DNA from: Emcibacteraceae bacterium
GTDB taxonomy: Bacteria; Pseudomonadota; Alphaproteobacteria; Sphingomonadales; Emcibacteraceae
Assembly (NCBI GenBank): GCA_041396985.1
Contig: JAWKXO010000001.1
Location: 59,778-123,777, forward strand
Length of the DNA: 64,000 nt
Reading direction: 5' to 3'
Part shown: positions 1 through 16,104 of the stretch, one piece after another
How the letters are laid out: each line of letters starts with the position of its first letter
Position numbering within the stretch: position 1 is the stretch's first letter
Translations under genes and position numbers: made by a program
Notes under the pieces: model-generated
What the model was told of the DNA's origin: nothing
The model's database searches: none
Seen by the model: only the letters and a program-made list of their open reading frames with translations

Positions 1-885
1 GAAAAGTTCAAAAAAATCACCGCCATTGGTGAATTTGATAAAGAGCCAGACTTCACCGCATAAAATTGCCGCACAGGCCATAAAAATAACCCAGCCTTCA
101 AAATAATGCAGAAGACCATCGGCCATTCCACCACCCCAATATTCAACCAGAACACCAACCATGCCAATTCTGAAACTGTTCATGAAAATTGTAATCGGTA
201 TTGTCGAAATAAAAACAATTGCCCGTTGCCAAAATGGCGCTTTAAAAAGATATGCTACCAAAAACCCAAGACTGGTAAGCGGGTATAAATAACGAAGGCC
301 ACTACAGGCATCCACCACCTGAAGCTTATAACTGCCAAGATCAATTACATTTCCTTCGAGAAAGACGGGTATACTCAAAAGTCTTATAAAAAAGACTCCA
401 AGTTCCGAAGAAATAAGCTGAAGGCGCCAGGACATAATTGAATCAAGAAAATAAGGCATCGGAATTGCAAACAGCAAAAACAGAATTGGCAATGCTGTCA
501 GACGTAATAACGCCATGCCGCCAAAGACAAGGGAAATACCAAGCAGCGAAAGAATAAAGCCCGTCTGTACCAGAATAAATATGGCGCTTAGTTCCCCGAC
601 AAGCAGCATAAAGCCGGAGACCAGAATAACAGCAAAACCTGCCCACATTGGCTTGCCTATGCTGGCTGCCAGCGCATCTCGTCTGTCCCAAAGCATCCAG
701 AGCGATATAGCCGGAATCAGAAAACCATGGCTATACTCATCCTGTGTCAACCAGCGCCCATACTGGTTTAATAATCCACCACTGAATGCCGCCAGACTGA
801 AAAACAGCGAGACGCCAAGCAGGATAAACTGAACAGGATGCTGCCTGATTATATTGGGGTGTGCCGTGTCAGAAATAATACTCAT
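1..885 (-). CDS. Exosortase (EpsH/Xrt family), N-terminal 295 codons; the C-terminus lies beyond position 1
   Basis: Missing from the ORF track because no stop codon is reached inside the window. Manual reverse-complement translation from the ATG at 885-883 stays open to position 1: MSIISDTAHPNIIRQHPVQFILLGVSLFFSLAAFSGGLLNQYGRWLTQDEYSHGFLIPAISLWMLWDRRDALAAS... It has multiple hydrophobic helices. The exosortase signature residues occur in the expected order: VVDACSGLRYL (Cys), IFMNSFRIG (Arg), LLHYFEGW (His). Confidence 0.85.
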   Translation of the reverse strand, partial: MSIISDTAHPNIIRQHPVQFILLGVSLFFSLAAFSGGLLNQYGRWLTQDEYSHGFLIPAISLWMLWDRRDALAASIGKPMWAGFAVILVSGFMLLVGELSAIFILVQTGFILSLLGISLVFGGMALLRLTALPILFLLFAIPMPYFLDSIMSWRLQLISSELGVFFIRLLSIPVFLEGNVIDLGSYKLQVVDACSGLRYLYPLTSLGFLVAYLFKAPFWQRAIVFISTIPITIFMNSFRIGMVGVLVEYWGGGMADGLLHYFEGWVIFMACAAILCGEVWLFIKFTNGGDFFELF

Positions 886-999
886 CCATTTAATTTTTTA
901 TTGCGTTTTATAATTTGACGAGATTATCACAAAGAAAAGTAAAAAAACAGTGTATGTGGGCTCGATTAAATTATTAAGTTTATTGTCTATTTTATTGAT

Positions 1000-2094
1000 T
1001 TATTTTGTTTTATTGGTAGCGATATTGAAATCAAGGCAATTAAGATGAAATATTCTTTTAATGAATTTATTTGGATTTATCAGGGTTAATTTATGCCCAT
1101 TGCTTTCCATTTCTTCATTAAATAGCAATAATTGAGCCAAAATTGACGGATCAATATAACCGACTTTTGTCATATCCAGCTCAAAATCCCCGTCCCGTTT
1201 CAGAATTTCGTTAAACATAGCGATAATCCTGTCCCGTATTTCTATCGTCAGATCACCTTTTAATATTACGGTCTTTTTCTTAAAAACCGGCAAAATATAT
1301 GGCGTTGACCGGGTGGTGTGCCTTTTGATCAGAGATCTGTATGGCAAAATATTTTTAAAAATCAATTTTAGAAAGGCACAACCGTCATTCCAATATCTGC
1401 TGAATAATTCCGGTTCTTCCTTAATCCGCCATAGCCATTCCAGATGAAAATTCTGCACCCATTCCGGTGCTCTCTTCACATTCCCGGCAATGAAATTGAC
1501 AACTGCCCCAAGATGGCTGATCACATAAGCATTTAAACTGTCACGATTATTTTCAATCCAGGCCTGGCCTTTTTTCGCACCTAGCGAAACAATGATGAAG
1601 TCGGCTTTCGCTTCATTAATTTCATCAATAATTTCGTTGCTGCTCATGTCTTCGACACTGCCAAAGCCGGGGTTCAGGTAACCGACACTTTCCAGTCCGC
1701 ATTTTTTTTCATTTAATATTTCATGGGCTTGTTCCGCTATGCCATCCTGACCGCCAAAGAAAAAAACCTTTATCGGTTTTTTCCGGCAGCGGTCATCATA
1801 TTTCAGAAAATCAATAAGACTGGACCCCGCAACCCGTTTTCTGATGGGGATATCAAGCAGTTTACACATAAACACAATCGGCATGCCGTCTGCTATGCTT
1901 AAATCAGAATGGAGGACAGACTTTCTGAAATGTTCATCATGCTGACCGGCAATCAGGAAATTCAGGTTCGGTGTCGATAAAAATAATTTATTTCTATTGT
2001 TGATAGCGTCGATTATTTTTGTGGCCGTTTCCTCCATGGTCACGGCATCAAAGCTTAATCCCAACAAATTATATATATCACGGTCAGCGTTCAT
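1000..2094 (-). CDS. WecB/TagA/CpsF-family (GT26) glycosyltransferase fused to a C-terminal STAS-like domain
   Basis: 364 aa. The first ~255 aa show GT26-type blocks: LSTPNLNFL, IADGMPIV, VFFFGG, IIVSLGAKKGQAWI, LGAVVNFIAGNVKRAP, HLEWLWRI. The last ~100 aa read as a STAS/SpoIIAA fold: ILKGDLTIE...ELDMTKVGYIDPSILAQLLLF...LTLINPNKFIKRIFHLNCLDF. It overlaps the upstream GT2 gene by 11 nt. Confidence 0.8.
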   Translation of the reverse strand: MNADRDIYNLLGLSFDAVTMEETATKIIDAINNRNKLFLSTPNLNFLIAGQHDEHFRKSVLHSDLSIADGMPIVFMCKLLDIPIRKRVAGSSLIDFLKYDDRCRKKPIKVFFFGGQDGIAEQAHEILNEKKCGLESVGYLNPGFGSVEDMSSNEIIDEINEAKADFIIVSLGAKKGQAWIENNRDSLNAYVISHLGAVVNFIAGNVKRAPEWVQNFHLEWLWRIKEEPELFSRYWNDGCAFLKLIFKNILPYRSLIKRHTTRSTPYILPVFKKKTVILKGDLTIEIRDRIIAMFNEILKRDGDFELDMTKVGYIDPSILAQLLLFNEEMESNGHKLTLINPNKFIKRIFHLNCLDFNIATNKTK

Positions 2095-3007
2095 GGTGCG
2101 CCTGCTCCCACTTTGGCTTCATTGCGTCATTGATTTCATCAATGGCCCGCTTTTTGCCAACCACCAATGCCCTTCGCTGATATTTTCTGATAAATGAAAT
2201 CAGTTTTCTGTCTGATTGTTGCGGCTTTCGGCAAATCATGCTTTTAATAAATCCCCATGCCATAGCCAGCCCGCCAATAATATAGGGTGGCCGCACCATC
2301 CGGTATGCGGCGGTTGCCATAAAATATAGTATACTGCTTCCCATATAATATTGTCCGTATCCGTGGCGCATCCGGCCGGTCAGTATGCCATTCTGACTTG
2401 ATCCCATCGGTCTCAGATGGATAAATCTGATTTTCGGGTCATCACTGCTGCAGGCGATCCAGCCAAGAAATCGGCAGCGATGACAGTCTATCGCATCCCA
2501 CATGACTTCACGGACAAAGCCGCCTATTTCCTCAAAACATTGTCGGCGGTAAAATTTTGATGCACCAACACACATTTCATCGCCGCACTTTTCACTGACC
2601 TGTCTGTCACCATCCATATAATAGGGTTTTCCGCTGAAACAGCCAAGTCTTGGATTTTCTGCCATCTTTTCCATCAGAATTTTGAAATAATCGGATGGCA
2701 GGATCAGATCCATATCCAGTTTGCAGATATAGTCAAATTCAGCGGGATTTATACTGTCATAGCCTTTATAAAAAGCTTCAATCACGCCGGGTCCAACGGC
2801 GCGGGCGCCACGGTTTTCATTGGTGATCACCGAAATCCAGGTATATTTTTCAGCATACTCGCTCAGAATGTTCGCTGTTTCATCGGTTGAGCCGTCATCA
2901 ACAATAACCCATTTTTCCGGCAATATGCTTTGCCCGGCAACGCTGTCGAGCGTCTGGCGCATAAATTTTGCCTCATTCCGGCAGGGTGATATAATTAAAT
3001 AGCTCAT
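2084..3007 (-). CDS. Family 2 glycosyltransferase (GT-A fold) with a hydrophobic C-terminal part
   Basis: N-terminus ISPCRNEAKFMRQTLDSVAGQSILPEKWVIVDDGSTDET is a typical GT2 start. There is a DxD-like LDMDL, and the C-terminus is hydrophobic. Confidence 0.8.
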   Translation of the reverse strand: MSYLIISPCRNEAKFMRQTLDSVAGQSILPEKWVIVDDGSTDETANILSEYAEKYTWISVITNENRGARAVGPGVIEAFYKGYDSINPAEFDYICKLDMDLILPSDYFKILMEKMAENPRLGCFSGKPYYMDGDRQVSEKCGDEMCVGASKFYRRQCFEEIGGFVREVMWDAIDCHRCRFLGWIACSSDDPKIRFIHLRPMGSSQNGILTGRMRHGYGQYYMGSSILYFMATAAYRMVRPPYIIGGLAMAWGFIKSMICRKPQQSDRKLISFIRKYQRRALVVGKKRAIDEINDAMKPKWEQAHHER

Positions 3008-3016
3008 ATTCTCATC

Positions 3017-4219
3017 TTATCCGTTAAACAGCACTTCCAGCCTGTCAATATTAACATCGCGACCAAATTCGCTTTGAACATGGCTTGCCGCATTATCGAT
3101 AAGACTATGCTGAATGTCACGTTTTACTATTGCTTCCGCCAGTGCATCAGCGTCTTTCGGTTCAACCAGCAGACCGGTTTTCCCATCTATAATCAGTTCC
3201 GGTATCCCCGATATCCTTGTTGAAATAACCGCTAGACCAAGCATCATCGCTTCCATCAGCACAACGGGAATACCGTCCATGTCGCCATTTTTATCTTTCT
3301 GACAGGCCAAAACAAAAATATCATGTTTTGCCATCCATCGCCCCACATCCTTATTATCAAGGGCGCCGATCATTTCCACGCAGTCGGATACATTTTTCTC
3401 AGCAATTCTTTTTTCAATCTGCGTCCGTTCGGGTCCATCGCCGGCAATGGACAGTAATACCGGTACCCCTCTATCTTTTAAAAGCGCCACGGCGTCAATT
3501 AAGGTCAGCATCCCTTTCTTTTCCACCAGACGGCCCAGTGAACAAAGCCTGATTTTCTCGCTTGCCTCTTTTTCCGCCCCTTCATATTTCAGATCGACCC
3601 CGCAGCGCACAATGCGTATTTTGTTTGCCGGGAGGCCAATTTCCATTAAAAAGCGCCTGTTGAAATCGGAAATAGTGACAAAATATTTCGCACGCTCCGC
3701 TTTTCTTTTTAAAAGAAGGCCGTGTTCAAAAATATCATTGGCATGGGACGTTACAGTAAAGGGTTTATGACTGATGACCGACGCATACATGGCAACCTGA
3801 CATGGCACATTGGCAAAATGAACATGAATGTGTTCACAACCGTTTTTTATGAATAACCGCGCCGCCCGACAGGCAGCAAAAAACTGATAAATCAGCTTAT
3901 AAGCCGCCAGATTGAAAAGCCCAACATGAAAAAAATCTGATATCAATAGCCCCAGTGCTTTCACTGTCCCCAAAGGCCTTGTGAAAAGACACTGAAAAAA
4001 AGCAATGATAAAAATAATCACCCCATCCTTATAAAGATAATGAACAGGTCCCATTTTTTCTTTTACTGCGGGCGAAACATCCACAGGTTGATGAATTGAC
4101 AGGGGAAAAATTTTGTAACCACGCTCACGTAAGGAAAAAATTTCATTATAGACAAATGTTTCCGATAATGCCGGAATTGCGGGCGCCAGATAGGCGATAT
4201 TTTTCTCCTTAAGCGCCAT
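3017..4219 (-). CDS. Group 1 (GT4-like, GT-B fold) glycosyltransferase
   Basis: The C-terminal half carries the GT-B nucleotide-sugar motif: GRLVEKKG, then DGIPVVLMEAMMLGLAVISTRISGIPELIIDGKTGLLVEP (E-x7-E type). Confidence 0.8.
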   Translation of the reverse strand: MALKEKNIAYLAPAIPALSETFVYNEIFSLRERGYKIFPLSIHQPVDVSPAVKEKMGPVHYLYKDGVIIFIIAFFQCLFTRPLGTVKALGLLISDFFHVGLFNLAAYKLIYQFFAACRAARLFIKNGCEHIHVHFANVPCQVAMYASVISHKPFTVTSHANDIFEHGLLLKRKAERAKYFVTISDFNRRFLMEIGLPANKIRIVRCGVDLKYEGAEKEASEKIRLCSLGRLVEKKGMLTLIDAVALLKDRGVPVLLSIAGDGPERTQIEKRIAEKNVSDCVEMIGALDNKDVGRWMAKHDIFVLACQKDKNGDMDGIPVVLMEAMMLGLAVISTRISGIPELIIDGKTGLLVEPKDADALAEAIVKRDIQHSLIDNAASHVQSEFGRDVNIDRLEVLFNG

Positions 4220-4726
4220 TTATTTTGTCTCAACCTTTAACGGTGCAGCGGGTATGCCCACTACTGTCTGATTTGGGGCAACATCATTAAGTACGACGGC
4301 ATTTGCCCCTACCCGCGAATGATCCCCCAATGTAATTTCCCCCAGAATTTTTGCACCACAACCGATGTCAACATGCCCGCCAACTTTCGGGGCTCCACCG
4401 ATCAATGTTCCCAATGTCACCTGCTGAAAAATCAGACAGTTTGGGCCAATCACCGTAGCAGGATGAATGACAATCCCATTGGGATGGGGGATGAGAAGCC
4501 CGCCACCAATATTGCACATAAGATCAATTTCCGCCCCTGTCACCACCGACCAGAACCGATGGGACAGGACCCAATATTTTTGTGCTGCTTTGGTGAAGAA
4601 CCCTTTATGACCTTGCTCGAGCGCCTGATATTTTCTGATTGCCCGAAGCAACCGCCTTCCGGGATCCCAGAAACGTCTTGGCTTCTCCCGGCTCCAATCC
4701 GGTATTTCCGCTGATACTTCAGACAT
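4220..4726 (-). CDS. Hexapeptide-repeat O-acetyltransferase (serine-acetyltransferase-like left-handed beta helix)
   Basis: Repeats: GGGLLIPHPNGIVIHPATVIGPNCLIFQQVTLG...GGHVDIGCGAKILGEITLGDHSRVGANAVVLNDV. Its start directly abuts the stop of the upstream GT4 gene (4219/4220). Confidence 0.8.
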   Translation of the reverse strand: MSEVSAEIPDWSREKPRRFWDPGRRLLRAIRKYQALEQGHKGFFTKAAQKYWVLSHRFWSVVTGAEIDLMCNIGGGLLIPHPNGIVIHPATVIGPNCLIFQQVTLGTLIGGAPKVGGHVDIGCGAKILGEITLGDHSRVGANAVVLNDVAPNQTVVGIPAAPLKVETK

Positions 4727-4760: not shown

Positions 4761-5762
4761 TTATTTATACTCGATGATATTTTGTTTGCTTCCGCTGATC
4801 TTACCGTAGTGATACTTTAAAAATCCTAAAAATTCCGGAATTTTATCAATCATACAAAATGTTGCATATAAAAACTTGTCCCCGGATGAATAAGGCATAT
4901 TCAATCCCTTATAAATTCTCAGTATCTGAATGGGAAAAAGCGCAAGAATAAAAAGAGCCAGTAAAGGATATTTCAAAAACGTAGCGATCAGGACAAGCGG
5001 ATAAAGTCCACCCCAAATCACCAGACTTTTTCGTTCTCTGGCCCAGCGCCCCCATTCCACAGCATTGGCATAGGAAAAACCGGTCCGGACCGATCTGATC
5101 CACCACGCATTATAATGCATCATGGCCGCATCATGAAAACCCATGGGCGCGTCAAGGCACATGATCTTCTGTCCCGCTTTTCTAAGGCGATGATAAAATT
5201 CCGGCTCTTCACCCGCAATCAGGTTTGTATTAAAGCCATCATGTTTACGGAATATATCTGCTCTGATGGTGGCAATGCCGCCGCAGGAATTAATTTCACC
5301 CGGCTTGATATACCACGCCATATCACATAGCCTGTTATAGAGCGTTAAGTCACGATATTTTTCACGAAGCCTCCCGCAAATGACCGCAACGTCCGCTGAA
5401 ACTTCAAAGGCGCTGATCGCATTTTCAAGCCAGTTTTCATCCAGTTCACAATCACCATCTATAAAATGCACATAATGAAGCCCCTCAACGGTTTCATTCA
5501 GGAACTTAAAACCGGCATTTCTGGCCCGGGCGGCGGTTAAGGGGCACTCTTGATCAAGCTCAATCACATTAATTTTAAAGGATTTTGCCAGATTGGCACT
5601 GCCGTCTGACGAACAGGAATCCACATAAACAATATGTTTGACACCAGAATTTAAAACTGATTCAATACAGGCTTTAAGCCGCTGACCTTCGTTACGGCCA
5701 ATAATGACGACCCCTGCATTTTTCAACATGCCGTTCTCTGTTACTGCATCATCTTTTGTCAT
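4761..5762 (-). CDS. Family 2 glycosyltransferase with C-terminal membrane segments
   Basis: VVIIGRNEGQRLKACIESVL...IVYVDSCSSDGS, DxD-like DGDCEL, hydrophobic C-terminus (LVIWGGLYPLVLIATFL...LFILALFPIQIL). Confidence 0.8.
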   Translation of the reverse strand: MTKDDAVTENGMLKNAGVVIIGRNEGQRLKACIESVLNSGVKHIVYVDSCSSDGSANLAKSFKINVIELDQECPLTAARARNAGFKFLNETVEGLHYVHFIDGDCELDENWLENAISAFEVSADVAVICGRLREKYRDLTLYNRLCDMAWYIKPGEINSCGGIATIRADIFRKHDGFNTNLIAGEEPEFYHRLRKAGQKIMCLDAPMGFHDAAMMHYNAWWIRSVRTGFSYANAVEWGRWARERKSLVIWGGLYPLVLIATFLKYPLLALFILALFPIQILRIYKGLNMPYSSGDKFLYATFCMIDKIPEFLGFLKYHYGKISGSKQNIIEYK

Positions 5763-5811: not shown

Positions 5812-7041
5812 TTACTGGCTCTCACGGATAACTTCAATACCCGCCTGTTCCAGAAGAGCGCAAAAATTATCCGGCAAATGTAATCCCGTTCTGAAGTCTG
5901 ACATTTTCGGCGTCGGATTACTTTCCGGATAAAATACATCGCGCCCCAAAAGTATTTTCCCGATTTTTGGCCTGATATCATTTTGACACAGGGCACCAAG
6001 ATCAGCCTTTTTAATAAGGGAAGACATATTTGGTCCATGATAGGCTGATAAAACCAGCATATCCATTAGCCCTCTCAAAAATGACATATGTCCGCCCTGA
6101 AGGCTGCTGCAGACTTCCCAAACCCGCCGAATAACAATCGGCTGAAATTTGTGACCAATTTTCTTATTAATAAACTGCGGCAGGAGATATGAGAATTTTT
6201 TATAAAGACGCCTGACTGTTCGCTGCGGTTCTACATAGGGGGTAATAAAATTTTTCCAGTTATTGGTATAATAAACATCCCCAAGCTGGCCTTTCCAGAT
6301 AATGGCTTCATGCTGATAGGTGTCAGCTATTTTCCTTAAATCCGCCCCCCATCGCCAATGGGCCAGATCGGCCCGGCAACAGGCCTCAACAATTTCATAA
6401 TCAAGTTCGCCCCGGTCATTGGTATCATCCAGTTTCAAAACGTCTATATTCAGATTATTTTGAGCAACAAACTCTTTTACCAGTTGATAATTCGGCTCGG
6501 CACTTAAGGCAACGACCGGATTTTCCCAGGGTAGTAAAAGCAGGTTCATGCTGTCCTTACCGCCGCACATAATAATATTTGTTTTGCCGGGGTTTTTATC
6601 CTCTATTATTTTAATATCTTTTTTCAGAGCGTCTGCTGTCAATCGGCAATAGTCATCAATATCGGTTATGTCAAAGCAGCAGTCATGCGGCGCACCGATT
6701 TTCACAATTTCCTGATCAATGGTGTAATTTCCGGGATGGTTCGCGAAATTTTTTGCAAAAATAGTATCAACAGCCGTTTGATTGAGCTTCATGCTATTTT
6801 TAAGCACAATGAGCGCCAGTATGGAAAATGAATAATAGTTCTTATAACGATAGACATTATAAAATGACGGCAACCCTTCAAACTTATCCGCCTGCCAGAT
6901 ATAAATATCATGATGCTGCCATACCATTTCTTCGGTAAGGCAGGGTACCTGCCGGATCTCCTTTATCCTGTTTCTTAGATTTTCAATATAGTCAGTGACC
7001 ATTTCCTGATAACCCATTCTGCCCGATAATATCCACGCCAT
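5812..7041 (-). CDS. Uncharacterised protein with a PP-loop-like ATP-pyrophosphatase motif (paralog 2 of a tandem pair)
   Basis: The ORF-track start is 7041. Alignment with the upstream paralog (MVTDYIENLRNRIKEI versus MDYIEKIREKIKTP) suggests the real start is the ATG at 7002. The motif NIIMCGGKDSMNLLLLPW resembles the S-G-G-x-D-S PP-loop. Blocks are conserved with the neighbour along the whole length. Confidence 0.7.
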   Translation of the reverse strand: MAWILSGRMGYQEMVTDYIENLRNRIKEIRQVPCLTEEMVWQHHDIYIWQADKFEGLPSFYNVYRYKNYYSFSILALIVLKNSMKLNQTAVDTIFAKNFANHPGNYTIDQEIVKIGAPHDCCFDITDIDDYCRLTADALKKDIKIIEDKNPGKTNIIMCGGKDSMNLLLLPWENPVVALSAEPNYQLVKEFVAQNNLNIDVLKLDDTNDRGELDYEIVEACCRADLAHWRWGADLRKIADTYQHEAIIWKGQLGDVYYTNNWKNFITPYVEPQRTVRRLYKKFSYLLPQFINKKIGHKFQPIVIRRVWEVCSSLQGGHMSFLRGLMDMLVLSAYHGPNMSSLIKKADLGALCQNDIRPKIGKILLGRDVFYPESNPTPKMSDFRTGLHLPDNFCALLEQAGIEVIRESQ

Positions 7042-8203
7042 GCTTTTTTAGCAGGTCAATAAACTTTTCCGGTTTATGAGACCCTTCCCTAAAGCCCGAC
7101 AATTTCGGCGACGGGTTACTGGATGGATATATAACCGGTTTGCCATGAAGCATTTCCCCTATTTTCATTCTGACATCCTTTTGAACCGCTTTTGCCAGAT
7201 CAACAGAGGACAGGACTTTCTGCACATTTTTTCCATGGTATGCCGATAATACGAGAGTATCCGTTAACGCCCTGATAAAGGCCATATGATCCCCCTGCGA
7301 AATTGCCCCTTTATTCCATACTGTATCCGCAACCATCCTGCTTATCAAGTGTCCGAAAGGGACAGATAAAAACATGGGCAGATAGGGTGACAGTTTATTA
7401 TAAACTTTACAGAAAAAGAGCCTAGGTTCATTTTCCGGATAAATATAAGTCTTCCACCGTGGCGCGAAGTAAGCATCGGCCATCTGCCCTTTCCAGATAA
7501 TAAGCTTCTTCGAATAATCGTCCGTTATTTTTTTTATATGGTGTCCCCAGCGCCAATGAACGCTATCAAGCCTGCAGCATAATTCAGCGATTTCATCCTG
7601 CAGATAGTTTTCGTCAAAACTGTCTTCCAGAAGACGCACCTCTATATCAAGATTATTCTCTTTCACAAAGTCGCACACCAGCGGATAATTCGGTACAGCA
7701 CTATAGGCAACGACCGGATTTTGCCAGGGCAGCAATAGCAGGTTCAGGCTATCCTTGCCCCCGCACATAATCACATTGATAAATCCGGGATTAAGCTTTT
7801 CAATTTCAGCAATGTCCGTTTTAATGGCTTCAACCAGCATCCGGCAATAGTCTTCGGCATCCGTAATTTTTTCCGTAAAACCATGTGAAGCGCCAATTCG
7901 TTCAACATCCTGATCAATGGGTGTATCGTGTCCGAGCAAAATGAAGTCTTTTGCGTTTAATTTTTTGACAGCCGCCGGGTTTAAATGGAGAGTGTTTTTA
8001 TGAAGTATAAGTGCCAATGGCGAATAGGAATAATAGTTATTATATCGATAAACCGGATAAAAGGCGGGCATGCCATCAAACCTGTCTGCTTTCCAAAGCA
8101 ACGGTCCTTGATGCTGCCACATCATATCCTCCGTCAAAACGTCAACGGATTTTGGGGTTTTAATTTTCTCTCTGATTTTTTCAATATAATCCATAAGGAA
8201 CAT
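6992..8203 (-). CDS. Uncharacterised protein with a PP-loop-like ATP-pyrophosphatase motif (paralog 1 of a tandem pair)
   Basis: 403 aa. Motif NVIMCGGKDSLNLLLLPWQNPVVAYSA. Blocks shared with 5812..7041: YRYxNYYS, DYCR, CCRxDxxHWRWG, IIWKGQ, LVLSAYHG, YPxSNPxPKxSxFRxGxH. Confidence 0.7.
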   Translation of the reverse strand: MFLMDYIEKIREKIKTPKSVDVLTEDMMWQHQGPLLWKADRFDGMPAFYPVYRYNNYYSYSPLALILHKNTLHLNPAAVKKLNAKDFILLGHDTPIDQDVERIGASHGFTEKITDAEDYCRMLVEAIKTDIAEIEKLNPGFINVIMCGGKDSLNLLLLPWQNPVVAYSAVPNYPLVCDFVKENNLDIEVRLLEDSFDENYLQDEIAELCCRLDSVHWRWGHHIKKITDDYSKKLIIWKGQMADAYFAPRWKTYIYPENEPRLFFCKVYNKLSPYLPMFLSVPFGHLISRMVADTVWNKGAISQGDHMAFIRALTDTLVLSAYHGKNVQKVLSSVDLAKAVQKDVRMKIGEMLHGKPVIYPSSNPSPKLSGFREGSHKPEKFIDLLKKHGVDIIGQNGLSGNGH

Positions 8204-8220: not shown

Positions 8221-9096
8221 TTAATGCCTGTCCTTATTTTTGGCCAAATAGTCTTTGATACCTTCCCGCATTTCATCACGGTCCATTGCAAAGGCAAGGT
8301 TTGCCAAAATAAATCCGGTTTTGTCCCCACAGTCAAAGCGCTCACCTTCAAAAAGCAGTCCGTGAAACGGAATATGACCCAGCATTTGTGCCATGGCGTC
8401 CGTTAATTGGATTTCCCCGCCAGCACCGATGACTTTTTTCTCAAGGTGGCTAAAAACTTCCGGCTGGAGTATATATCTGCCGATGATGGAAAAAGTGGAT
8501 GGCGCGTCTTTTGGATCCGGCTTTTCTACCAACCCTTTGACTTCAATAACCTTTCCTTCCCTGCTTGCAACATCAAGAATACCGTAGCTTGAGGTTTTTT
8601 CCCGCGGCACTTCCTCAATCGCCACCACATTGCCGCCTTTTTCATTATAAAGATCCATCATTTGCTTAAGGCAAGGACTTGAAGAATTTACCAGGTCATC
8701 CGCAAGCAATACTGCGAATGGTTCGTTACCGACAATATTCTTGGCACAGTATATTGCGTGTCCAAGTCCAAGTGCTTCCTGCTGGCGGGTATAGGATATG
8801 CTGCCCTCATTTGGCAAAAGATTTATCAGCTGATCCAGAATTTCCGTTTTATTTTTCTTGGCCAGCATATCTTCAAGTTCATAGGAATGATCAAAATGAT
8901 TTTCGATGGCAGCTTTTCCGCGGCCGGTCACAAAAATAATTTCCTCAATTCCGGCGGCTCTTGCTTCCTCAACCGCATATTGAATAAGCGGCTTATCAAC
9001 AACCGGCAACATTTCCTTGGGCATTGATTTTGTTGCCGGCAGGAACCTTGTACCCATACCACCGACCGGAAAAACGGCTTTTCTTACCGGTTTCAT
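8221..9096 (-). CDS. galU: UTP-glucose-1-phosphate uridylyltransferase
   Basis: KAVFPVGGMGTRFLPATKSMPKEMLPVVDKPLIQYAVEE is the canonical GalU N-terminus. 291 aa. It overlaps the pgi stop by 4 nt. Confidence 0.9.
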   Translation of the reverse strand: MKPVRKAVFPVGGMGTRFLPATKSMPKEMLPVVDKPLIQYAVEEARAAGIEEIIFVTGRGKAAIENHFDHSYELEDMLAKKNKTEILDQLINLLPNEGSISYTRQQEALGLGHAIYCAKNIVGNEPFAVLLADDLVNSSSPCLKQMMDLYNEKGGNVVAIEEVPREKTSSYGILDVASREGKVIEVKGLVEKPDPKDAPSTFSIIGRYILQPEVFSHLEKKVIGAGGEIQLTDAMAQMLGHIPFHGLLFEGERFDCGDKTGFILANLAFAMDRDEMREGIKDYLAKNKDRH

Positions 9097-10487
9097 TTTA
9101 CTTTCCCCTTATTTTTGGCGGACTGTTTCTTTCCACCTTTTTTTGGCAAAATATTGGCACCGGGAACAGAAATGGTCTGATTGACGTTATGAAGTCTCGA
9201 CAAATATTCCTTGGTCAGGTTCTTTCCATATTCAACGGATGGCTGATCATGCGGGTTAACCCCAAGCAGTTCCGCTGTTATGATTGTTTCCAGAATGAAA
9301 TGCATAATCAGCGCCCCTAATATGCGCTCATTAATTTCACGAATTTTAATCTGCCGGACGGGTTTGCCCCGCTCTCCCAAAGCTTCCACTGTGCTGTCTG
9401 CTTCTGCTTCTACCAGATCACCAATGGTTGAGCCGGCCATAAAATAAAAATCTTTATCATCAATCAGCATTGAATCGATGGTTGGCCCCTCACCCTTGCT
9501 CGAAACGGTGATGACGGTGAAATATTTATCATTTGGGCCATCAAGAAATAATTGAAGCTGGCTATGCTGATCCATCGGACCAAGCGCACTGAAAGGTGTT
9601 GTCCCCTTGCCTTTTTTACCAAGACTTTCCGCCCATAGTTGCTTGTACCAGTTTGAAAAGCCGGTCAGCCGGCATTCATACGGCATCATGACATTGATAT
9701 TAATATTGCGGCTTTTCTGTAGTTCATAAACTGCAATTGCCCCCATTGCCGGGGCCATTTCGGTAATTTTCTCTGCATTCATCATTCTGGTGAGAACCTG
9801 CTGTGCCCCATCACGCAAGGCAACAACGTCTAGCCCAACGATCATGGCCGGCAACAGTCCGACAATTGATAATACTGAAAACCGTCCTCCCAGATCAGGG
9901 TCATGATAATGTATAGGGAGCCGCCATTTAACCGCAAAATCGTGAAGGAAACTTTTCCCCGGCTGCACAATGACGGTAAAATGGTTCTGTACTTCATTAT
10001 CCCCAACAAGGGCTCTCATATAAGAAAAACAGGCCAGCATCTGGGCTATTGTTTCCGCTGTCCCACCGGATTTTGAAATGACCAGGAAGTGGGTATTCCC
10101 GAGGTCCAGCTCTGAAATAAGCTGATGCATTGTGTGGGGGCCAAGATTATCAGGAAAGTGAATTCGCGCCTTGCCATTTGGCACATAGAGCTGCTCACCG
10201 GTCAGCGCGACAAGCATTTGTGCACCAAGACTTGATCCCCCTGTACCAAGCACCACAACATCCTTAAATCGTTTTGAAATCCTGTCAGCGGTTCTGCGAA
10301 TATCCGTCAGGTCATCCCGCTCACTGGGAAGCTGAAGATAGGGGTATAAAAATTTACGTCTGTTGTTCCCATATTTGCGCTTTTCACGCAGCGTTGCTAA
10401 AAATTCTTTTACACGCTTTTCATAGCTGCTCAGATTAATATCATCATTGGCGTCAAAGATATTTTCAAACTGGGTTTCATATAACAT
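9093..10487 (-). CDS. pgi: Glucose-6-phosphate isomerase (short form) with a Lys-rich C-terminal tail
   Basis: SIS-domain motifs VLGTGGSSLGAQ and VISKSGGTAET, then a typical PGI C-terminal half. The tail reads ...ILPKKGGKKQSAKNKGKVK. Confidence 0.85.
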   Translation of the reverse strand: MLYETQFENIFDANDDINLSSYEKRVKEFLATLREKRKYGNNRRKFLYPYLQLPSERDDLTDIRRTADRISKRFKDVVVLGTGGSSLGAQMLVALTGEQLYVPNGKARIHFPDNLGPHTMHQLISELDLGNTHFLVISKSGGTAETIAQMLACFSYMRALVGDNEVQNHFTVIVQPGKSFLHDFAVKWRLPIHYHDPDLGGRFSVLSIVGLLPAMIVGLDVVALRDGAQQVLTRMMNAEKITEMAPAMGAIAVYELQKSRNININVMMPYECRLTGFSNWYKQLWAESLGKKGKGTTPFSALGPMDQHSQLQLFLDGPNDKYFTVITVSSKGEGPTIDSMLIDDKDFYFMAGSTIGDLVEAEADSTVEALGERGKPVRQIKIREINERILGALIMHFILETIITAELLGVNPHDQPSVEYGKNLTKEYLSRLHNVNQTISVPGANILPKKGGKKQSAKNKGKVK

Positions 10488-10620
10488 TTTCAGACTTTCA
10501 TACGCTTATGATCTTTGAACCCTATTAATAATAGGGATTTCTTTCATTTATATTAATATGCTTTGCTTATATACGCGAATTGATCAAATAAATCATTGTT
10601 TTAAATGAATTTTGAATATT

Positions 10621-11997
10621 CTAAACAATCAACGAAACCAATTTATTAAATATATATCCCGCTGCGCCGCCCACCAGCATAATCGGCAACATATAAAACT
10701 CTTTTAAGATATTTAAGACCCCAAGTTTATTTTTGAGGTAAAAATCCAATGGCAAGCTGCCAATTAGATATAATGCCAAAAGCCAGACTGCCCATTCAAA
10801 TCCCCCGACATTAAAAATAAACGGCAACCCGCCAAGCAAAATAACAGTATTAATGACGGCTTTAATTGATGGATATTTTGGTTTATCAACAGAAAAATAA
10901 AGTGCGTCTGAAATGCTGGTCCCTGTAAAAATAAGGGAAAATGAAAGTACAGAGAGCATCCAGCCGGCATCATGATAGCGCTGATCGAAAAGTAAGTTGA
11001 CGATTGCTCCTCCGGAAACAAATAAAAAACCTGCCAGCGACATTGATATGCCATCAGACACCCGCCTGACTTTATAGTAAATTGAGGCGATTTCCTTTTC
11101 ATTGTCGCGATTGATTTCACTGAACAGCGGAAAAAAGACGGTGAAATTTAATTTGAAAATAGCCTGATTGACAGCGGACGCCAGAAAATAAGCAATGGCA
11201 TAAATTCCAAGAATTTCTCCGGAGACCAGATTTCCCAGAATCAGCCTATCCCCCTGAGCCAGAAATGCTGATATTAAACTGGAAACCAGTATCCATTTAC
11301 CGTAATGAAAAATTTCCCAGAATACATCGCTTTTCCATTCAATCCGGCTTTTGGCCCCCGGAAACGAGGTATGGGACATAATTGTCATGATCAAGGAAGA
11401 CAGAACTGCCCCGGAGACAAGTGCCCAGACAGACCGTTCAATTAATAAAGCCCAGGCAATCATAATAAAAATACCGGCAATCTGGGAAAAGATCTGAATA
11501 ATCGTCAGCCTGCCCAGCAGCATTTTTCTGTTGGCGATAATAATGTTCATAGAAGAAAAGCCATTAATCAGTGACGTCAAAGACATCACGGCAATAATCA
11601 TAGGAAGCTCGGGCGCCGTATAAGCCGAGTTTTCAGAAAACAGTCCAAATTCATTTGCGACTTTTATAATAAGGGCAACCAGAAGAACCAGAACTGTAAC
11701 GATAGTCCCTCTTATAATCTGAATAGTCCAGGCCGTATTGATAAATTGTGGATCATCGCCGCGTCTGCTTCTTATGATGCTGGGTTTGATACCGATATCG
11801 GAAATCAGTGTCATCATAAATAAAAAAACCTGGGCCAAAGCCATAATTCCGAACATTTCCGGCACAAGCAACCGGGTCATTATCAGATTATTTGCCAGTC
11901 TTATTACCTGACTCATACCAAAACCGGTAAGCGCCCATAGTCCGGCTTTTATGACACGCGACCACAGGTTATTTTTATTTTCCAACCCATTTTCCAT
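10621..11997 (-). CDS. Wzx-like polysaccharide flippase (MOP superfamily)
   Basis: 458 aa and hydrophobic throughout, with about 12-14 helices. Its length, topology and position in an EPS locus fit Wzx-type oligosaccharide flippases. No catalytic motif can be verified. Confidence 0.7.
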   Translation of the reverse strand: MENGLENKNNLWSRVIKAGLWALTGFGMSQVIRLANNLIMTRLLVPEMFGIMALAQVFLFMMTLISDIGIKPSIIRSRRGDDPQFINTAWTIQIIRGTIVTVLVLLVALIIKVANEFGLFSENSAYTAPELPMIIAVMSLTSLINGFSSMNIIIANRKMLLGRLTIIQIFSQIAGIFIMIAWALLIERSVWALVSGAVLSSLIMTIMSHTSFPGAKSRIEWKSDVFWEIFHYGKWILVSSLISAFLAQGDRLILGNLVSGEILGIYAIAYFLASAVNQAIFKLNFTVFFPLFSEINRDNEKEIASIYYKVRRVSDGISMSLAGFLFVSGGAIVNLLFDQRYHDAGWMLSVLSFSLIFTGTSISDALYFSVDKPKYPSIKAVINTVILLGGLPFIFNVGGFEWAVWLLALYLIGSLPLDFYLKNKLGVLNILKEFYMLPIMLVGGAAGYIFNKLVSLIV

Positions 11998-12144: not shown

Positions 12145-13671
12145 ATGTCAGAAGAAATTAGAGCGCTGATATTTATTGCTGTTATTGTCAGCGTTCCTCT
12201 CTTCCTGTTTTTACGCTATTCTTCTTCGGAAGGATTAAAACGGGACGTTAAAATCTGGATTTCTGTTTGGGTTTTTACCACGCTCCTCGCGTTTCTTGCG
12301 CCTAATTTCTGGATATATGCAGTCATCCTATCAATTTTTCTGATCTTTCTGACCAGGAATAAGCCCATTCTGAAATTATGCCTGTTTTTTCTGCTTTTGC
12401 CATCAATTCCTGCTGCTACGGTTATGGTGCCCGGCTTTGGCATAATCAATTATTTTATTTATACCGGACCGCATCATGTTATCATTCTGGTTCTGCTGTT
12501 ACCTCTGTTGATCAGCGGCAGACGAGGGTTAAATGCCACTAAATCAGTAAATATACTGGCGTTTGTTTATTTTTTGCTGCTCGCCGGCATTGCTTTCAGA
12601 GACACAAACGTTACCAATGCTCTTAGATTTACCACCATTACAGCACTGGCAACCATCATACCCTTTTATGCTGTTGGCAGATCGGTGCATAACACAGATG
12701 ATCTGAAGAAAATAATGTTTGCCGCCATATTGGGTATTTTTCTCCAATCCGTCATTGGCATCGCCGAAACCTTAAAAGGCTGGCATCTTTATAATGGGGC
12801 GATTAATTCCCTTGGCTTGAGATGGGGTGTGGGCAATTATCTTAGCCGAAATAATTTGTTACGCGCCTCTGCGGCTTTGGGCCACCCTATAGTACTAGGG
12901 TATATTTCAGCAATCGGCCTTGGGCTCTTTTTATATTTTTATCCGAAAGCACAAAAAAGAATGCGACAGCAGTATTGGATTGGTGTTGCTGTCTTTATTG
13001 GCGGTCTGCTTGCCAGTCTATCCAGGGGACCATGGGTTGGTGCATTTACCATGATACTGGTATTTTTCCTGACCGGGCAAAAAGCGGTCGGAAAACTTTC
13101 GAAATTTTTGGTTGCCGGTTTTTTAATACTTGCCTTATTATCAACAACCCAAGCCGGGAAAAGTTTCGTAGAGCTTATTCCCTTTGTCAGCAGTGATGAG
13201 AATATCCATGCGGTCAGCACGATTAGTTATCGTCAACAACTTCTTGACCAGTCATGGATTGTTATAAAAAGAAACCCGTTCTTTGGGTCTGCCAATTATA
13301 TGGATGCCCCCGAAATGGAAACAATGCGACAGGGCGAAGGAATTATCGATATTGTGAACAGCTATCTGCAGATAGCCCTTTCAAACGGACTGATCGGGCT
13401 AGGTCTGTTTTTATCAATTTTCGCCTCTATTCTTTATAAAATGTATAAATTAATGCCCACACTCAAACAAAATATAAAGTTCAGGGATCTGCTCCTGATG
13501 GACAGGGCCCTTTTTGCCACGATTATTGGTGTGATGGTTACGATCTTCACAATGAGCAGTATCAGTATTTCTCAGCAATATTATTGGAGCCTGCTCGGAC
13601 TGGCCTGTGCTTTCATCAGGATAGCCAAAACAGAACTGCTCAACCATATTCTGGAAACAAACCGAAGATAA
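12145..13671 (+). CDS. O-antigen-ligase/Wzy-like polytopic membrane protein (EPS polymerase or exosortase-associated O-glycosylation ligase type)
   Basis: 508 aa with 10 or more hydrophobic helices and a Wzy_C-like block LLASLSRGPWVGAF. It is the only plus-strand gene inside the minus-strand EPS operons. Confidence 0.7.
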   Translation: MSEEIRALIFIAVIVSVPLFLFLRYSSSEGLKRDVKIWISVWVFTTLLAFLAPNFWIYAVILSIFLIFLTRNKPILKLCLFFLLLPSIPAATVMVPGFGIINYFIYTGPHHVIILVLLLPLLISGRRGLNATKSVNILAFVYFLLLAGIAFRDTNVTNALRFTTITALATIIPFYAVGRSVHNTDDLKKIMFAAILGIFLQSVIGIAETLKGWHLYNGAINSLGLRWGVGNYLSRNNLLRASAALGHPIVLGYISAIGLGLFLYFYPKAQKRMRQQYWIGVAVFIGGLLASLSRGPWVGAFTMILVFFLTGQKAVGKLSKFLVAGFLILALLSTTQAGKSFVELIPFVSSDENIHAVSTISYRQQLLDQSWIVIKRNPFFGSANYMDAPEMETMRQGEGIIDIVNSYLQIALSNGLIGLGLFLSIFASILYKMYKLMPTLKQNIKFRDLLLMDRALFATIIGVMVTIFTMSSISISQQYYWSLLGLACAFIRIAKTELLNHILETNRR

Positions 13672-13677
13672 AAAACG

Positions 13678-14490
13678 TCAGGTATATCCGCGCCATTCAT
13701 CGTCGGATTTATTCAGGACGGTCCCAAGCAGTTTTTTGCTGCTTAAAAGGCGCATACTTTCTTCAATTTCCGATTTGGAGCACATCCCATTGCCCACCAC
13801 CAGCAAAACACAATCAACATTTGGCATAAAGGCAATAGCATCATCAGTCGCAAGAAGTGGCGGCAAATCAAATATAATAATTCTCGAAGCGTAGCGGTCT
13901 TTTACTTCCTCAACAAAGGCTGACATTTTTCTGGATGACATTAAAGCAGAACTATCCTTATAGGCTTTGTTATTTGGCAGCACTACAAGCCTTTGAATGC
14001 CTGGATTAACCAGCATTTCTTCCAGTTCTACCTTACCGTCAAAATAGTCCATTATTGAATGTTTGGTTATAAGTCCGAGATTCTTGGAAACTTCCGGTTT
14101 CTTAAGATCAAAATCGGCAAGCATGATTGAGAAATCATTATACCTTGCCATCGAAATCGCCAGGTTGACAGAGATAACCGTTTTTCCGCAGCCTTGCGTC
14201 GGTGATGTAACCGCAATAGTTTTCCAGCCGTTTTCCTGCATCTTTGATAATATTTTGGTTCTCAGAATGTCAAAAATGGTCGACTTTACATCCTGTTGAT
14301 TATAAACGATTATCCGGTGCTTTTCCAGATGAGCGGGGTCAAGGTCAACCGTTTTCGTATTGACATACGAAAATTCATCAAGACCTTTTGAAGCGCCATT
14401 TGACCTTTTATGCTTGCCGTTTTTCGGAGTAATGCCAGCAGCAAGGTTCTGTTTTTTTACTTTTTCAATGGCCTGTTTAATTCGCTCCAT
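13678..14490 (-). CDS. BY-kinase-like P-loop ATPase (exopolysaccharide / PEP-CTERM-locus tyrosine autokinase type)
   Basis: Walker A VTSPTQGCGKTVISVNLA, Walker A-prime MLADFDLKKP, Walker B RIIIFDLPPLL. The C-terminus ...KSDDEWRGYT holds one Tyr only. Confidence 0.8.
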   Translation of the reverse strand: MERIKQAIEKVKKQNLAAGITPKNGKHKRSNGASKGLDEFSYVNTKTVDLDPAHLEKHRIIVYNQQDVKSTIFDILRTKILSKMQENGWKTIAVTSPTQGCGKTVISVNLAISMARYNDFSIMLADFDLKKPEVSKNLGLITKHSIMDYFDGKVELEEMLVNPGIQRLVVLPNNKAYKDSSALMSSRKMSAFVEEVKDRYASRIIIFDLPPLLATDDAIAFMPNVDCVLLVVGNGMCSKSEIEESMRLLSSKKLLGTVLNKSDDEWRGYT

Positions 14491-14517: not shown

Positions 14518-16104
14518 TCAACTGATCCTCGACCAAACTTTAAAAAAGAAGATATCGAGCGGTAAATATAGGAAATGTACCAACACCAACGCACACACAA
14601 TACTGGCAACAGAAAACCCGGCAATTATCTTAATTCGGTTTTTGCTATGGGCTGTCTCTTCCCAGGTTTCAATATATGGAATATTAGCAAGCGGTTGCTG
14701 TTGGACTGCTTCGGTAAGTCGCGCCATGCCATAAACACTTCCATCAATCATTTCAATAAGGAATATGGCACCAACACCAGCCGCTACTGCGAGAAGGAAC
14801 CCCAGCATAATTATTTTCTGTCTGTTAGGGCGGATCGGTTTTTCTGCCAGAACCGGTGGCTCAAGCACCAGAAAGCGTTCCGCTTTCTTTTCCTCTTCCA
14901 GACTTTCAGAAAGCTGCGCATCCATAAGTTTTGCTTTGATGGATTCGTATTGCGCCAAAGCATTTTCATAATTCCGGTTAAGAGCCCTGAGCCCTCTTTC
15001 GACCTGAGGTGTCTGGATTATTGTTTTCTCCAGATCAGCGATATTTTTTTCCAGTTCTTTTTTAAGCGCCAATTGAGTTTTGATTGTATCGTCAATTGAT
15101 GCAATTCGCGCCTGTATTTTTGCTGCAACCGGGTCGCCAACAATTTCCGGTGAACCATCACCGCCTCCGCCTCCGGCAGCAATTTTTTCCTTTAGCTGAC
15201 TGATTTTTCGTTTCAGGGAAACAATATCAGGGTGGGCATCACCATAAATTGTTGATTTTTCTGCTAGCTGTGCCTCAAGTTTTGCCAGTTCCTGTTCCGG
15301 GTTGGCGGAAATTTCATTTTGGCCATTATCTGTGCTATATGTCCTTGAGGATAGATCAATTTCAAGCAGACTTTTTTGTGATTCAAGTGTTTTAATGGAA
15401 AGATCAATATCCTCAGCGGCCCGGACCGCACGCTCACGCTGATTAATGCGAAGGTCAAGATGTTCCGGCAATGCACTGCTATTTTGCTGTTTGTAGTCGG
15501 CTACCTGATTTTCAATATCTTCGAGCTGGTCTTTTAGCTTTGTTGTTTCGTTATTCAAAAAATCAGTTGTTTCAGAAGCGCGGGAAATTCTGTTTCTGAC
15601 ATTTTCATCCAGGAAAAGTGTCACAAATTCATTGGCAACACTAAACGCAAGATTGGGTTTGCTGTGCTCTACGGATATTCTAAAAGCAATTGCCGTTTTG
15701 CCATTATTCTTCTGGCCCTGAACGTCAGCGCTTATTATTTCCACTGAAACCATATTGCGCATCCGCTCAACCAGATCCGATGCCGGAATGCTTCTTCTGG
15801 CATCACCAAAAAGATTAAATTTATCAATTATTCTCAGAAGATTTTCCCGGATCATAACCCTTTGGGTAATCACGCCAATTCTTTCATCAGCATAACTGGT
15901 GACTGTTGATTGAACAAAATTATCCGGTATCTGTTGCGATTCAACCATAATTGTACCGGTGGACTGGTAAACCGGAGCCATAAGTAGCGCCACACCAATA
16001 CTCACTGCTAACACAAGTACAAACGGAATAATCAGAAATAGATATCGCCGCTTCAATATTGCGAAATAATCTCTTAACGTTAACTCTGCTTCAGAATATT
16101 CCAT
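14518..16104 (-). CDS. Polysaccharide chain-length determinant (Wzz/GumC-like, PEP-CTERM-locus type)
   Basis: N-terminal Wzz block LRDYFAILKRRYLFLIIPFVLVLAVS...PVYQSTGTIMVE. A long coiled-coil periplasmic region follows, with a GGGGGDGS run. C-terminal TM segments are present. Confidence 0.85.
   Translation of the reverse strand: MEYSEAELTLRDYFAILKRRYLFLIIPFVLVLAVSIGVALLMAPVYQSTGTIMVESQQIPDNFVQSTVTSYADERIGVITQRVMIRENLLRIIDKFNLFGDARRSIPASDLVERMRNMVSVEIISADVQGQKNNGKTAIAFRISVEHSKPNLAFSVANEFVTLFLDENVRNRISRASETTDFLNNETTKLKDQLEDIENQVADYKQQNSSALPEHLDLRINQRERAVRAAEDIDLSIKTLESQKSLLEIDLSSRTYSTDNGQNEISANPEQELAKLEAQLAEKSTIYGDAHPDIVSLKRKISQLKEKIAAGGGGGDGSPEIVGDPVAAKIQARIASIDDTIKTQLALKKELEKNIADLEKTIIQTPQVERGLRALNRNYENALAQYESIKAKLMDAQLSESLEEEKKAERFLVLEPPVLAEKPIRPNRQKIIMLGFLLAVAAGVGAIFLIEMIDGSVYGMARLTEAVQQQPLANIPYIETWEETAHSKNRIKIIAGFSVASIVCALVLVHFLYLPLDIFFFKVWSRIS

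Follow-up and report, generated by a model that had tools for sequence, protein, structure and literature searches.

Asparagine synthase AsnB, beta-lactam synthetase and carbapenam synthetase share a chemistry in which a carboxylate is adenylated in an ATP-dependent step and the adenylate is then attacked by a nitrogen nucleophile. Beta-lactam and carbapenam synthetases carry out this acyl-adenylate chemistry without glutamine. AsnB homologues occur in extracellular polysaccharide (EPS) and exosortase loci (PMC11340318). The N-acetyl-sugar amidotransferases (NASATs) are defined by a PP-loop together with a zinc-binding tetracysteine motif, CxxC...[GN]xCxxC, and have a solved structure, 8WEX (PMC10607449). 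Here, these systems are compared with two adjacent genes, paralog A and paralog B, located in a stretch of 64,000 nucleotides from an Emcibacteraceae bacterium (GenBank assembly GCA_041396985.1, contig JAWKXO010000001.1, positions 59,778 to 123,777; hereafter the window). A preliminary description, made from the sequence of the window, had reported them as tandem paralogs with a CGGKDS motif and had considered a new ATP-dependent sugar-modifying enzyme. With a probability of roughly one half, the pair is read here as soluble cytoplasmic enzymes of an undescribed family, which would form a remote, shortened branch of the AsnB/beta-lactam synthetase superfamily and catalyze glutamine-independent amide formation on a glycan precursor. 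Taken by itself, a role in glycan biosynthesis is probable; the specific carboxylate-to-amide chemistry, which is argued by analogy, is a tentative proposal that falls somewhat short of an even chance.

The placement in this superfamily is derived from the predicted structure. An AlphaFold2 model of paralog A, built with a 41-sequence alignment, reached a predicted local distance difference test (pLDDT) value of 95.2 and a predicted template modeling (pTM) score of 0.92. In a Foldseek search against the PDB, all 21 matches at E <= 1e-3 were chains of the AsnB superfamily, with 260-456 aligned columns. Carbapenam and beta-lactam synthetases were the best structural matches (E 4e-7 to 1e-4, probability 1.0), led by carbapenam synthetase 1q15 (E 4e-7). 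The AsnB-type hydroxyamidotransferase TsnB9 (7ylz) ranked second (E 4.5e-7) and had the highest TM-score (0.55), while beta-lactam synthetase (1mc1/1jgt/1mbz), human ASNS, 8sue and E. coli AsnB (1ct9) followed with E-values up to 1e-4; the AsnB-class matches also included 9b6c and 6gq3. Generic PP-loop enzymes, namely NAD/NMN synthetase, TtuA and GMP synthetase, matched at E 3e-3 to 4e-2, at least three orders of magnitude more weakly. In the model, CGGKDS sits between strand 142-147 and helix 150-155, where AsnB-type enzymes have SGGxDS. The earlier proposal that this motif is a PP-loop agrees with this predicted strand-loop-helix in a Rossmann-like fold and with the Foldseek matches. By its loop and its modeled Rossmann-like alpha/beta/alpha fold, the family can be assigned to the PP-loop ATP pyrophosphatase superfamily, and residues ~116-395 very probably adopt the fold of the AsnB superfamily synthetase domain, with its helical subdomain behind the nucleotide-binding core. 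The C-terminal half, previously said to fit no family, thus has a structural counterpart. Since this half is predicted to have the AsnB-superfamily fold, the pair is not an unrelated substitute for the AsnB class. The core of the earlier interpretation, an uncharacterized ATP-dependent PP-loop enzyme in an EPS operon, holds, but the pair appears to be a very distant member of the class that it was thought to replace.

The family is rare yet widely scattered. Its relatives were gathered by a word-indexed search of 5.8 billion proteins, which returned 165 sequences, all annotated as 'hypothetical' and none with a Pfam domain. When 1.84 billion cluster representatives were searched exhaustively with a profile, 221 matched at E <= 1e-3. 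These comprise a core family with about 90 full-length representatives, fragments, and a sister family of similar length, which has the central region and the C-terminal motif in common and is likewise without annotation. A pattern-seeded scan with one genome per species found 45 loci in 185,579 species. Hosts include Emcibacteraceae/Kordiimonadaceae, Nannocystis, Gemmatimonadota, Planctomycetota, Nitrospirota, Sphingomonadales, Rhodobacterales, Burkholderiales, Acinetobacter faecalis, Pseudoalteromonas and Cecembia. Conservation was counted over 41 diverse members, among which 45 positions are invariant, including GG.DS, W.GQ, H306, R311, D343, R345, NP.P, S369 and R372; both window copies keep all 45. 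Within the PP-loop, G148, G149, D151 and S152 are invariant in these members, and G149, D151 and S152 in the sister family as well. Sister-family proteins have L, T, M, V or A instead of the PP-loop cysteine, which is therefore not essential.

Neither window protein had a Pfam or NCBIfam match at E <= 10, and no meaningful match to Pfam, NCBIfam, PADLOC or PHROGs was obtained for the window pair, the 41 members or the sister-family members scanned. This includes the Pfam model PF00733 (Asn_synthase) and the NCBIfam model of the exosortase-associated amidotransferase, neither of which matched the window proteins or the 41 members at E <= 10. By the curated Asn_synthase sequence criteria, the family would not count as a member. 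When PDB sequences were searched with profiles from two alignments, nothing but designed helical proteins came up (E > 0.05), and literature searches found no description of the family. For curated libraries, the initial impression that no known family covers the pair is hence correct, and the 'hypothetical' label in genome annotation is due to the invisibility of the family to every curated model library tested.

Direct profile alignments with AsnB are corroborative only. With hhalign, CGGKDS falls on SGGLDS of E. coli AsnB (residues 234-239), followed colinearly by K238-G239-Q240..D243 on S346-G347-E348..D351 and by the invariant R372 on K449. The synthetase-like domain of paralog A accordingly contains the motif W237-K-G-Q-x-x-D243 after strand 234-238 and a C-terminal N363-P-x-P...R372. 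The likeness to AsnB, including the exosortase-associated amidotransferase of EPS loci, thus lies in the predicted synthetase-domain fold (1ct9, 8sue, 9b6c, 6gq3) and in the colinear motif pairs SGGxDS/CGGKDS and SGEGSD/KGQ..D. The family differs in that an invariant Gln aligns with AsnB E348 and in that the Cys nucleophile and the first ~100 residues of the glutaminase domain are missing.

The N-terminal region deserves separate consideration. Its first ~110 residues (118 in one count of the domain) are conserved in the core and sister families, with the motifs P.FY, YS.S, L.LI and ID. The N-termini, MFLMDY in paralog A and MVTDY in paralog B, contain no Cys2, there is no conserved Cys within the first 110 residues of the 41 members, and no GATase_6/7 match was found in the window proteins or these members. 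As the domain is devoid of an N-terminal catalytic cysteine, the enzyme cannot hydrolyze glutamine. CxxC is likewise absent from both paralogs and all 41 members, so that the absence of a catalytic glutaminase and of a zinc ribbon, noted earlier, is supported. Modeled alone, the N-terminal domain reached a pLDDT of 91 and had no fold match in the PDB with Foldseek (best E 6.7). A weak hhalign match places family residues 42-68 (FDG..PAFYPVYRYNNYYSYSPLALI) on E. coli AsnB 135-165 (RDHLGIIPLYMGYDEHGQLYVASEMKAL), which is the end of the glutaminase domain. Its score of 31.3 compares with 17.5 +- 3.7 for column-shuffled controls and was reached by 0/30 of them, although the match has no structural support. 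This is the best local hhalign match to AsnB and the sole one clearly above shuffle noise, and the distance from this motif to the PP-loop is similar in the family and in AsnB. These alignments hint that the domain may be a stump of the glutaminase domain that has lost its first ~100 residues. The unplaced N-terminal region of ~150 amino acids described before is consequently still without a PDB fold match, but it is shorter, at ~110 residues, and shows faint sequence similarity to the end of the AsnB glutaminase domain.

In having a PP-loop synthetase domain and no working glutaminase nucleophile, the family resembles beta-lactam and carbapenam synthetases (1jgt/1mc1, 1q15). It differs from them in sequence and fold detail, with an identity of only 9-15 % and TM-scores of 0.37-0.51, and in architecture, since their N-terminal domain is a full ~200 amino acids compared to ~110 residues without a fold match. 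These synthetases also cyclize small molecules in antibiotic pathways, whereas the family is found in polysaccharide loci. TsnB9 is similar in being AsnB-type, but is a protein of 576 amino acids with a full N-terminal domain and a secondary-metabolite context, and has 10 % identity to the family.

The relationship between the two window proteins is clear. BLASTP aligned paralog A and paralog B with 194/395 identities (49 %), 0 gaps and an E-value of 1e-135, which confirms that they are tandem paralogs over their whole length. All motif blocks quoted in the preliminary description are visible in this alignment: WxADxFxGxPxFY..VYRY.NYYS, DYCR and MCGGKDSxNLLLLPW.NPVVA.SA.PNY.LV, as well as CCR.D..HWRWG, IIWKGQ, LVLSAYHG and YP.SNP.PK.S.FR.G.H. 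The similarity does not appear to result from chance or low complexity, because the same family recurs in 165 database proteins and both copies keep the 45 positions that are invariant over the 41 members. Both proteins are predicted to be soluble, with a maximum 19-residue hydropathy of 1.2. Paralog A is 100 % identical to the database protein P0001 ('hypothetical protein R3D86_00285, Emcibacteraceae bacterium'); an alternative start, the ATG at 8194, is used in NCBI's version of 400 amino acids. For paralog B, the mechanically called open reading frame (ORF) spans 5812..7041 (409 amino acids), but homology to paralog A starts only at codon 14 (MVTDYIENL, ATG 7002). With this start, paralog B overlaps the stop of paralog A by 11 nt, not 50 nt, within ATGGTCACTGA. 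Such an overlap of start and stop is an arrangement typical of translational coupling.

The neighborhoods of the family genes point towards glycan assembly. Genes were called in 36 non-redundant loci, which gave 136 genes at positions up to 2 from the family gene and 125 genes at positions 3-4. Glycosyltransferases of families 2 (GT2) and 4 (GT4) account for 12/136 and 10/136 of the nearer genes, which also include hexapeptide acetyltransferases, nucleotidyltransferases, ABC-2 transporters, methyltransferases, DegT aminotransferases and Wzy. At positions 3-4, GT2 (13/125), GT4 (11/125) and Wzx (6/125) were counted. Apart from one lipoprotein cluster, present in five loci, all-against-all clustering of 366 neighbor proteins produced nothing but generic groups (GT4, GT2, Wzx, acetyltransferase and epimerase). 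The GT4 cluster is present in 19 of the 36 loci, directly adjacent in eight of them, and the GT2 cluster in 14. Among Pfam-annotated contigs, an Acinetobacter cluster combines the family gene with glycosyltransferases, an ABC transporter, Glf and a PglL-like ligase, and another family locus is a Wzx/Wzy/Wza cluster. A direct link is provided by P0229 (L057 8001-11033), a fusion protein of 1010 amino acids in which the family domain is combined with GT2 and GT4 domains; a further GT4 precedes it. Genes of the sister family adjoin GT4, epimerase and sulfotransferase genes.

With these GT2 and GT4 neighbors, the polysaccharide-locus setting recognized in the window extends across genomes. The same cannot be said of a co-occurrence with exosortases. 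Within 10 kb of the family gene, an exosortase was found only in the window, L004/L010, L007, L008, L012 and L041, and not in the other fetched loci; these exosortase-bearing loci are of the Emcibacteraceae/Kordiimonadaceae type, plus one Alcaligenaceae contig. Because exosortases are confined to few loci while glycan genes recur, the family is associated with glycan assembly in general and not with exosortase systems. The link to glycan loci is thus general, whereas that to exosortases is lineage-specific. Homologues of AsnB were detected close to the family gene at three distinct loci only (L006/L023, L019, L053), the window not being one of them.

By analogy with characterized members of the AsnB superfamily, the PP-loop would bind ATP, a carboxylate of the substrate would be adenylated with release of pyrophosphate, and a nitrogen nucleophile would attack the acyl-AMP to form an amide. 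Since glutamine cannot supply the nitrogen, this nucleophile would be free ammonia or an amine. Judging from the genomic setting, the substrate could be a sugar precursor, such as a nucleotide sugar, or the polyprenyl-linked repeat unit of a surface or secreted polysaccharide, and the enzyme would then act beside the glycosyltransferases, ahead of flipping of the unit. Between the two window copies, the substrate or the nucleophile most likely differs. A more far-reaching version is doubtful: the family could be a class of glutamine-independent, ATP-dependent glycan amide ligases that add ammonia, an amine or an amino acid to an acidic sugar of the repeat unit, with each Emcibacteraceae/Kordiimonadaceae paralog providing a different substituent. 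That an amine-bearing substituent could serve as the exosortase acceptor for VPLPA-/PEP-CTERM proteins is pure speculation, and the lack of exosortases in most loci weakens it.

Several observations weigh against amide formation on a glycan precursor. The main weakness is that the loci offer no obvious origin for a sugar carboxylate. UDP-sugar 6-dehydrogenase is the usual source of such carboxylates, and a phmmer search with E. coli Ugd found none within 10 kb of the family gene in 56 sequences, including the 64-kb window. PP-loop enzymes can also adenylate groups other than carboxylates. Clustering of the neighbors in the 36 loci revealed no single recurrent partner gene, and about 40 % of the loci have no obvious glycan genes nearby (e.g. 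L001, L005 and L054). The fold assignment has limitations of its own. TM-scores are moderate (0.36-0.55, normalized to the query) and the root-mean-square deviations are high. The hhalign matches to AsnB are weak (E 0.006-0.05), and one profile was matched or beaten by 2/30 column shuffles; due to these weak sequence links, the family assignment rests on the predicted structure. In addition, the sister family has not retained R372, the residue aligned with the AsnB catalytic lysine.

Other chemistries have to be weighed against this reading. One that a PP-loop in polysaccharide loci would fit is acetamidino formation as in WbuX/WbpG/PseA, in which the N-acetyl carbonyl is adenylated and replaced with ammonia. 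NASATs such as WbuX, WbpG and LpNASAT are PP-loop enzymes of similar size (~370-400 amino acids) that have no glutaminase of their own and occur in lipopolysaccharide and EPS loci (PMC10607449, PMC11340318). The family nevertheless shows none of their distinguishing features: the tetracysteine zinc motif is absent from 41/41 members, there is no NCBIfam match even at E <= 10, and the open basin of the NASATs was not seen. The 50 best Foldseek matches do not include 8WEX, whose own closest folds are TtuA, NadE and LarE rather than AsnB. No HisH/HisF-type partner occurs in the top 25 Pfam families of neighboring genes. The pair is consequently not of the WbuX/WbpG type, in agreement with the preliminary description, and acetamidino formation is quite unlikely. 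The fold matches themselves could instead be taken at face value, since carbapenam synthetase, TsnB9 and beta-lactam synthetase all work without glutamine-derived ammonia and several loci are without glycan genes. The family might then catalyze intramolecular cyclization like beta-lactam or carbapenam synthetases, hydroxamate formation like TsnB9, or formation of a peptide macrolactam, with coincidental glycan neighbors. Such a coincidence is hard to reconcile with glycosyltransferases making up ~16-19 % of the neighboring genes across distant phyla, with the direct fusion to GT2 and GT4 in P0229, and with the position of the window genes inside an operon between GalU and glycosyltransferases. 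Families of secondary-metabolite clusters are also not among the 25 commonest neighbor Pfam families, which leaves a small-molecule role only a slim chance. Sulfur insertion as in TtuA/LarE, or sulfate activation feeding nearby sulfotransferases, is highly improbable. TtuA is one of the weaker fold matches, there are sulfotransferases close by in L006, L052 and L058, and the core family has the conserved cysteines C147 and C209-C210. However, conservation of these cysteines does not extend to the sister family or to all core members, the TtuA matches are ~10,000-fold weaker than those to AsnB-type enzymes, a CxxC iron-sulfur motif is absent, and sulfotransferases are not among the 25 commonest neighbor families.

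The remaining question is whether paralogs A and B form an obligate heterodimer as the functional unit, with catalytic and structural roles divided between them, as had been suggested. This is favored by the adjacency and translational coupling of the genes with their 11-nt overlap, by the A-then-B order conserved in related genomes, and by the deposition of solved AsnB-superfamily entries with at least two chains. The distribution of copies speaks for a different history. Tandem copies exist only in loci of the Emcibacteraceae/Kordiimonadaceae type: the window, L007 and L008 each have two, L004/L010 has three, and L011 has two and a fragment. Copies are single in all other lineages, and for this reason a heterodimer is no general feature of the family. 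In a neighbor-joining tree, the copies fall into three orthologous clades A, B and C, with the conserved gene order C-A-B. Orthologues have 55-67 % identity and paralogs 43-51 %, closely related genomes excluded; the clade B orthologues are L007_2, L008_2, L010_3, L011_3 and L012_1. The order of phosphoglucose isomerase, GalU and family gene is conserved in L010, L011 and L012. In the metagenome-assembled genome OFTM144, each of the clades A, B and C is found on a contig of its own, and only B is part of the EPS locus there. Since both window copies retain all invariant residues, neither looks like a degenerate subunit. The window copies are old lineage-specific duplicates, of which one relative has three, with all catalytic motifs and all invariant residues kept in every copy. 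This pattern most likely reflects subfunctionalized enzymes with different substrates or nucleophiles, which it fits better than an obligate heterodimer; the latter is unlikely for the window pair.

If amide formation on a glycan precursor is correct, the family would be an amide-ligase candidate for surface polysaccharides, an enzyme type expected for such a locus. Amide substituents on bacterial surface polysaccharides, such as uronamides and amides of amino acids or amines, alter charge, antigenicity and susceptibility to phages or lyases, and for many of these amide-linked substituents we know of no ligase. It would also represent a further way of reducing the AsnB scaffold, with the synthetase domain retained and a stump of ~110 residues in place of the glutaminase domain. 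As several cultivable hosts carry a single copy, namely Acinetobacter faecalis, Nannocystis species, Tranquillimonas rosea, Sphingosinicella terrae and Cecembia lonarensis, the function is directly testable.

The features of the pair and of the surrounding polysaccharide locus are compiled in the following table. Annotation with Pfam and NCBIfam and translation of the window genes corroborate the exosortase-bearing EPS operon described around the pair.

Features of paralogs A and B and of the surrounding locus (coordinates refer to the window)
Feature	Coordinates	Strand	Basis or remark
Paralog A	6992..8203	minus	ORF 403 aa; family clade A
PP-loop C147-G-G-K-D-S152 of paralog A	7748..7765	minus	Alignment, AlphaFold2 model
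N-terminal domain of paralog A, residues 1 to ~112	7868..8203	minus	Conserved motifs P.FY / YS.S / L.LI / ID
Predicted AsnB-type synthetase-like domain of paralog A, residues ~116-395	7019..7858	minus	Foldseek and hhalign
Paralog B	5812..7002	minus	396 aa from ATG at 7002; family clade B
PP-loop CGGKDS of paralog B	6550..6567	minus	A/B alignment; Cys146 in 396-aa numbering
Exosortase, N-terminal 296 aa, cut by window start	1..888	minus	Translation and NCBIfam
WecG/TagA/CpsF-family glycosyltransferase fused to C-terminal STAS	1000-2094	minus	Pfam; downstream
GT2	2084-3007	minus	Pfam; downstream
GT4	3017-4219	minus	Pfam; downstream
Hexapeptide acetyltransferase	4220-4726	minus	Pfam; downstream
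GT2	4761-5762	minus	Pfam; downstream of B
GalU-type UTP-glucose-1-phosphate uridylyltransferase	8221-9096	minus	Pfam NTP_transferase; upstream of A
Phosphoglucose isomerase	9093-10487	minus	Pfam PGI; upstream of A
Wzx flippase	10621-11997	minus	Pfam/NCBIfam
Wzy_C	12145-13671	plus	Pfam/NCBIfam
Tyrosine autokinase	13678-14490	minus	Pfam/NCBIfam
Chain-length determinant	14518-16104	minus	Pfam/NCBIfam
381-aa ORF between chain-length determinant and Wza-like exporter	16119-17264	minus	No Pfam/NCBIfam match
Wza-like exporter	17297-17860	minus	Pfam/NCBIfam
VPLPA-CTERM protein, 173 aa, secreted	18287-18808	minus	C-terminal sorting signal read directly
Undecaprenyl phosphate (Und-P) glucose phosphotransferase (glucose-1-phosphate priming)	19240-20688	plus	Pfam/NCBIfam

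The minus-strand genes from phosphoglucose isomerase and GalU through paralogs A and B to the glycosyltransferases and the exosortase are tightly packed or overlapping. Genes of the operon downstream of the pair gave EpsC-like and EpsA-like NCBIfam matches that score under their cut-offs, and the WecG-STAS fusion is also found in the syntenic locus L004 (16155-17249). The exosortase fragment scores 309 bits with the XrtD model, 178 with XrtA and 168 with 8TM_EpsH, the last being over its cut-off of 105.55. The C-terminus of the secreted protein of 173 amino acids, AAVPLPPALIAFSTAMLGVGFLARRRRKTKAVFA, consists of AAVPLPPA, a hydrophobic stretch and RRRRK, which is a sorting signal of the VPLPA-CTERM type. 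This signal fits the exosortase fragment, whose best match is the VPLPA-CTERM-specific XrtD model. Other components of the window locus score best with XrtA-system models.

Some family loci have distinctive contexts. On a Nitrospirae contig (L006 6656-10628), the family gene lies directly between a sulfotransferase and a full-length homologue of glutamine-dependent asparagine synthase; as this AsnB homologue adjoins the family gene, the two are not simply interchangeable. On a metagenomic contig (L054 4667-9233), the family gene directly follows gatC-gatA-gatB, which encode the tRNA-dependent amidotransferase, outside any glycan cluster. Two further connections were considered and rejected: a link to sulfation, since sulfotransferases occur in only three annotated contexts, and a role in defence suggested by 'GT4-conflict' matches, which overlap ordinary GT4 matches while PADLOC returned nothing.

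The family gene is split or frameshifted in L044 (9944-11497), L047 (9971-11160) and L051 (2270-3455), and these copies may be pseudogenes or assembly errors. In the high-GC hosts L030, L041, L042, L017 and L035 (gene at ~10001-11140), its GC content at third codon positions is at or below the locus average, which suggests lateral acquisition together with glycan islands. In loci from different phyla (L014 7671-9851, L018 11229-13568, L021 11227-13392, L024 and L025), the family gene adjoins a gene for a lipoprotein of ~720-780 amino acids that has PKD domains and, at its beta-helix-like C-terminus, a final (D/F)xGAxE motif; this lipoprotein may degrade or modify polysaccharide.

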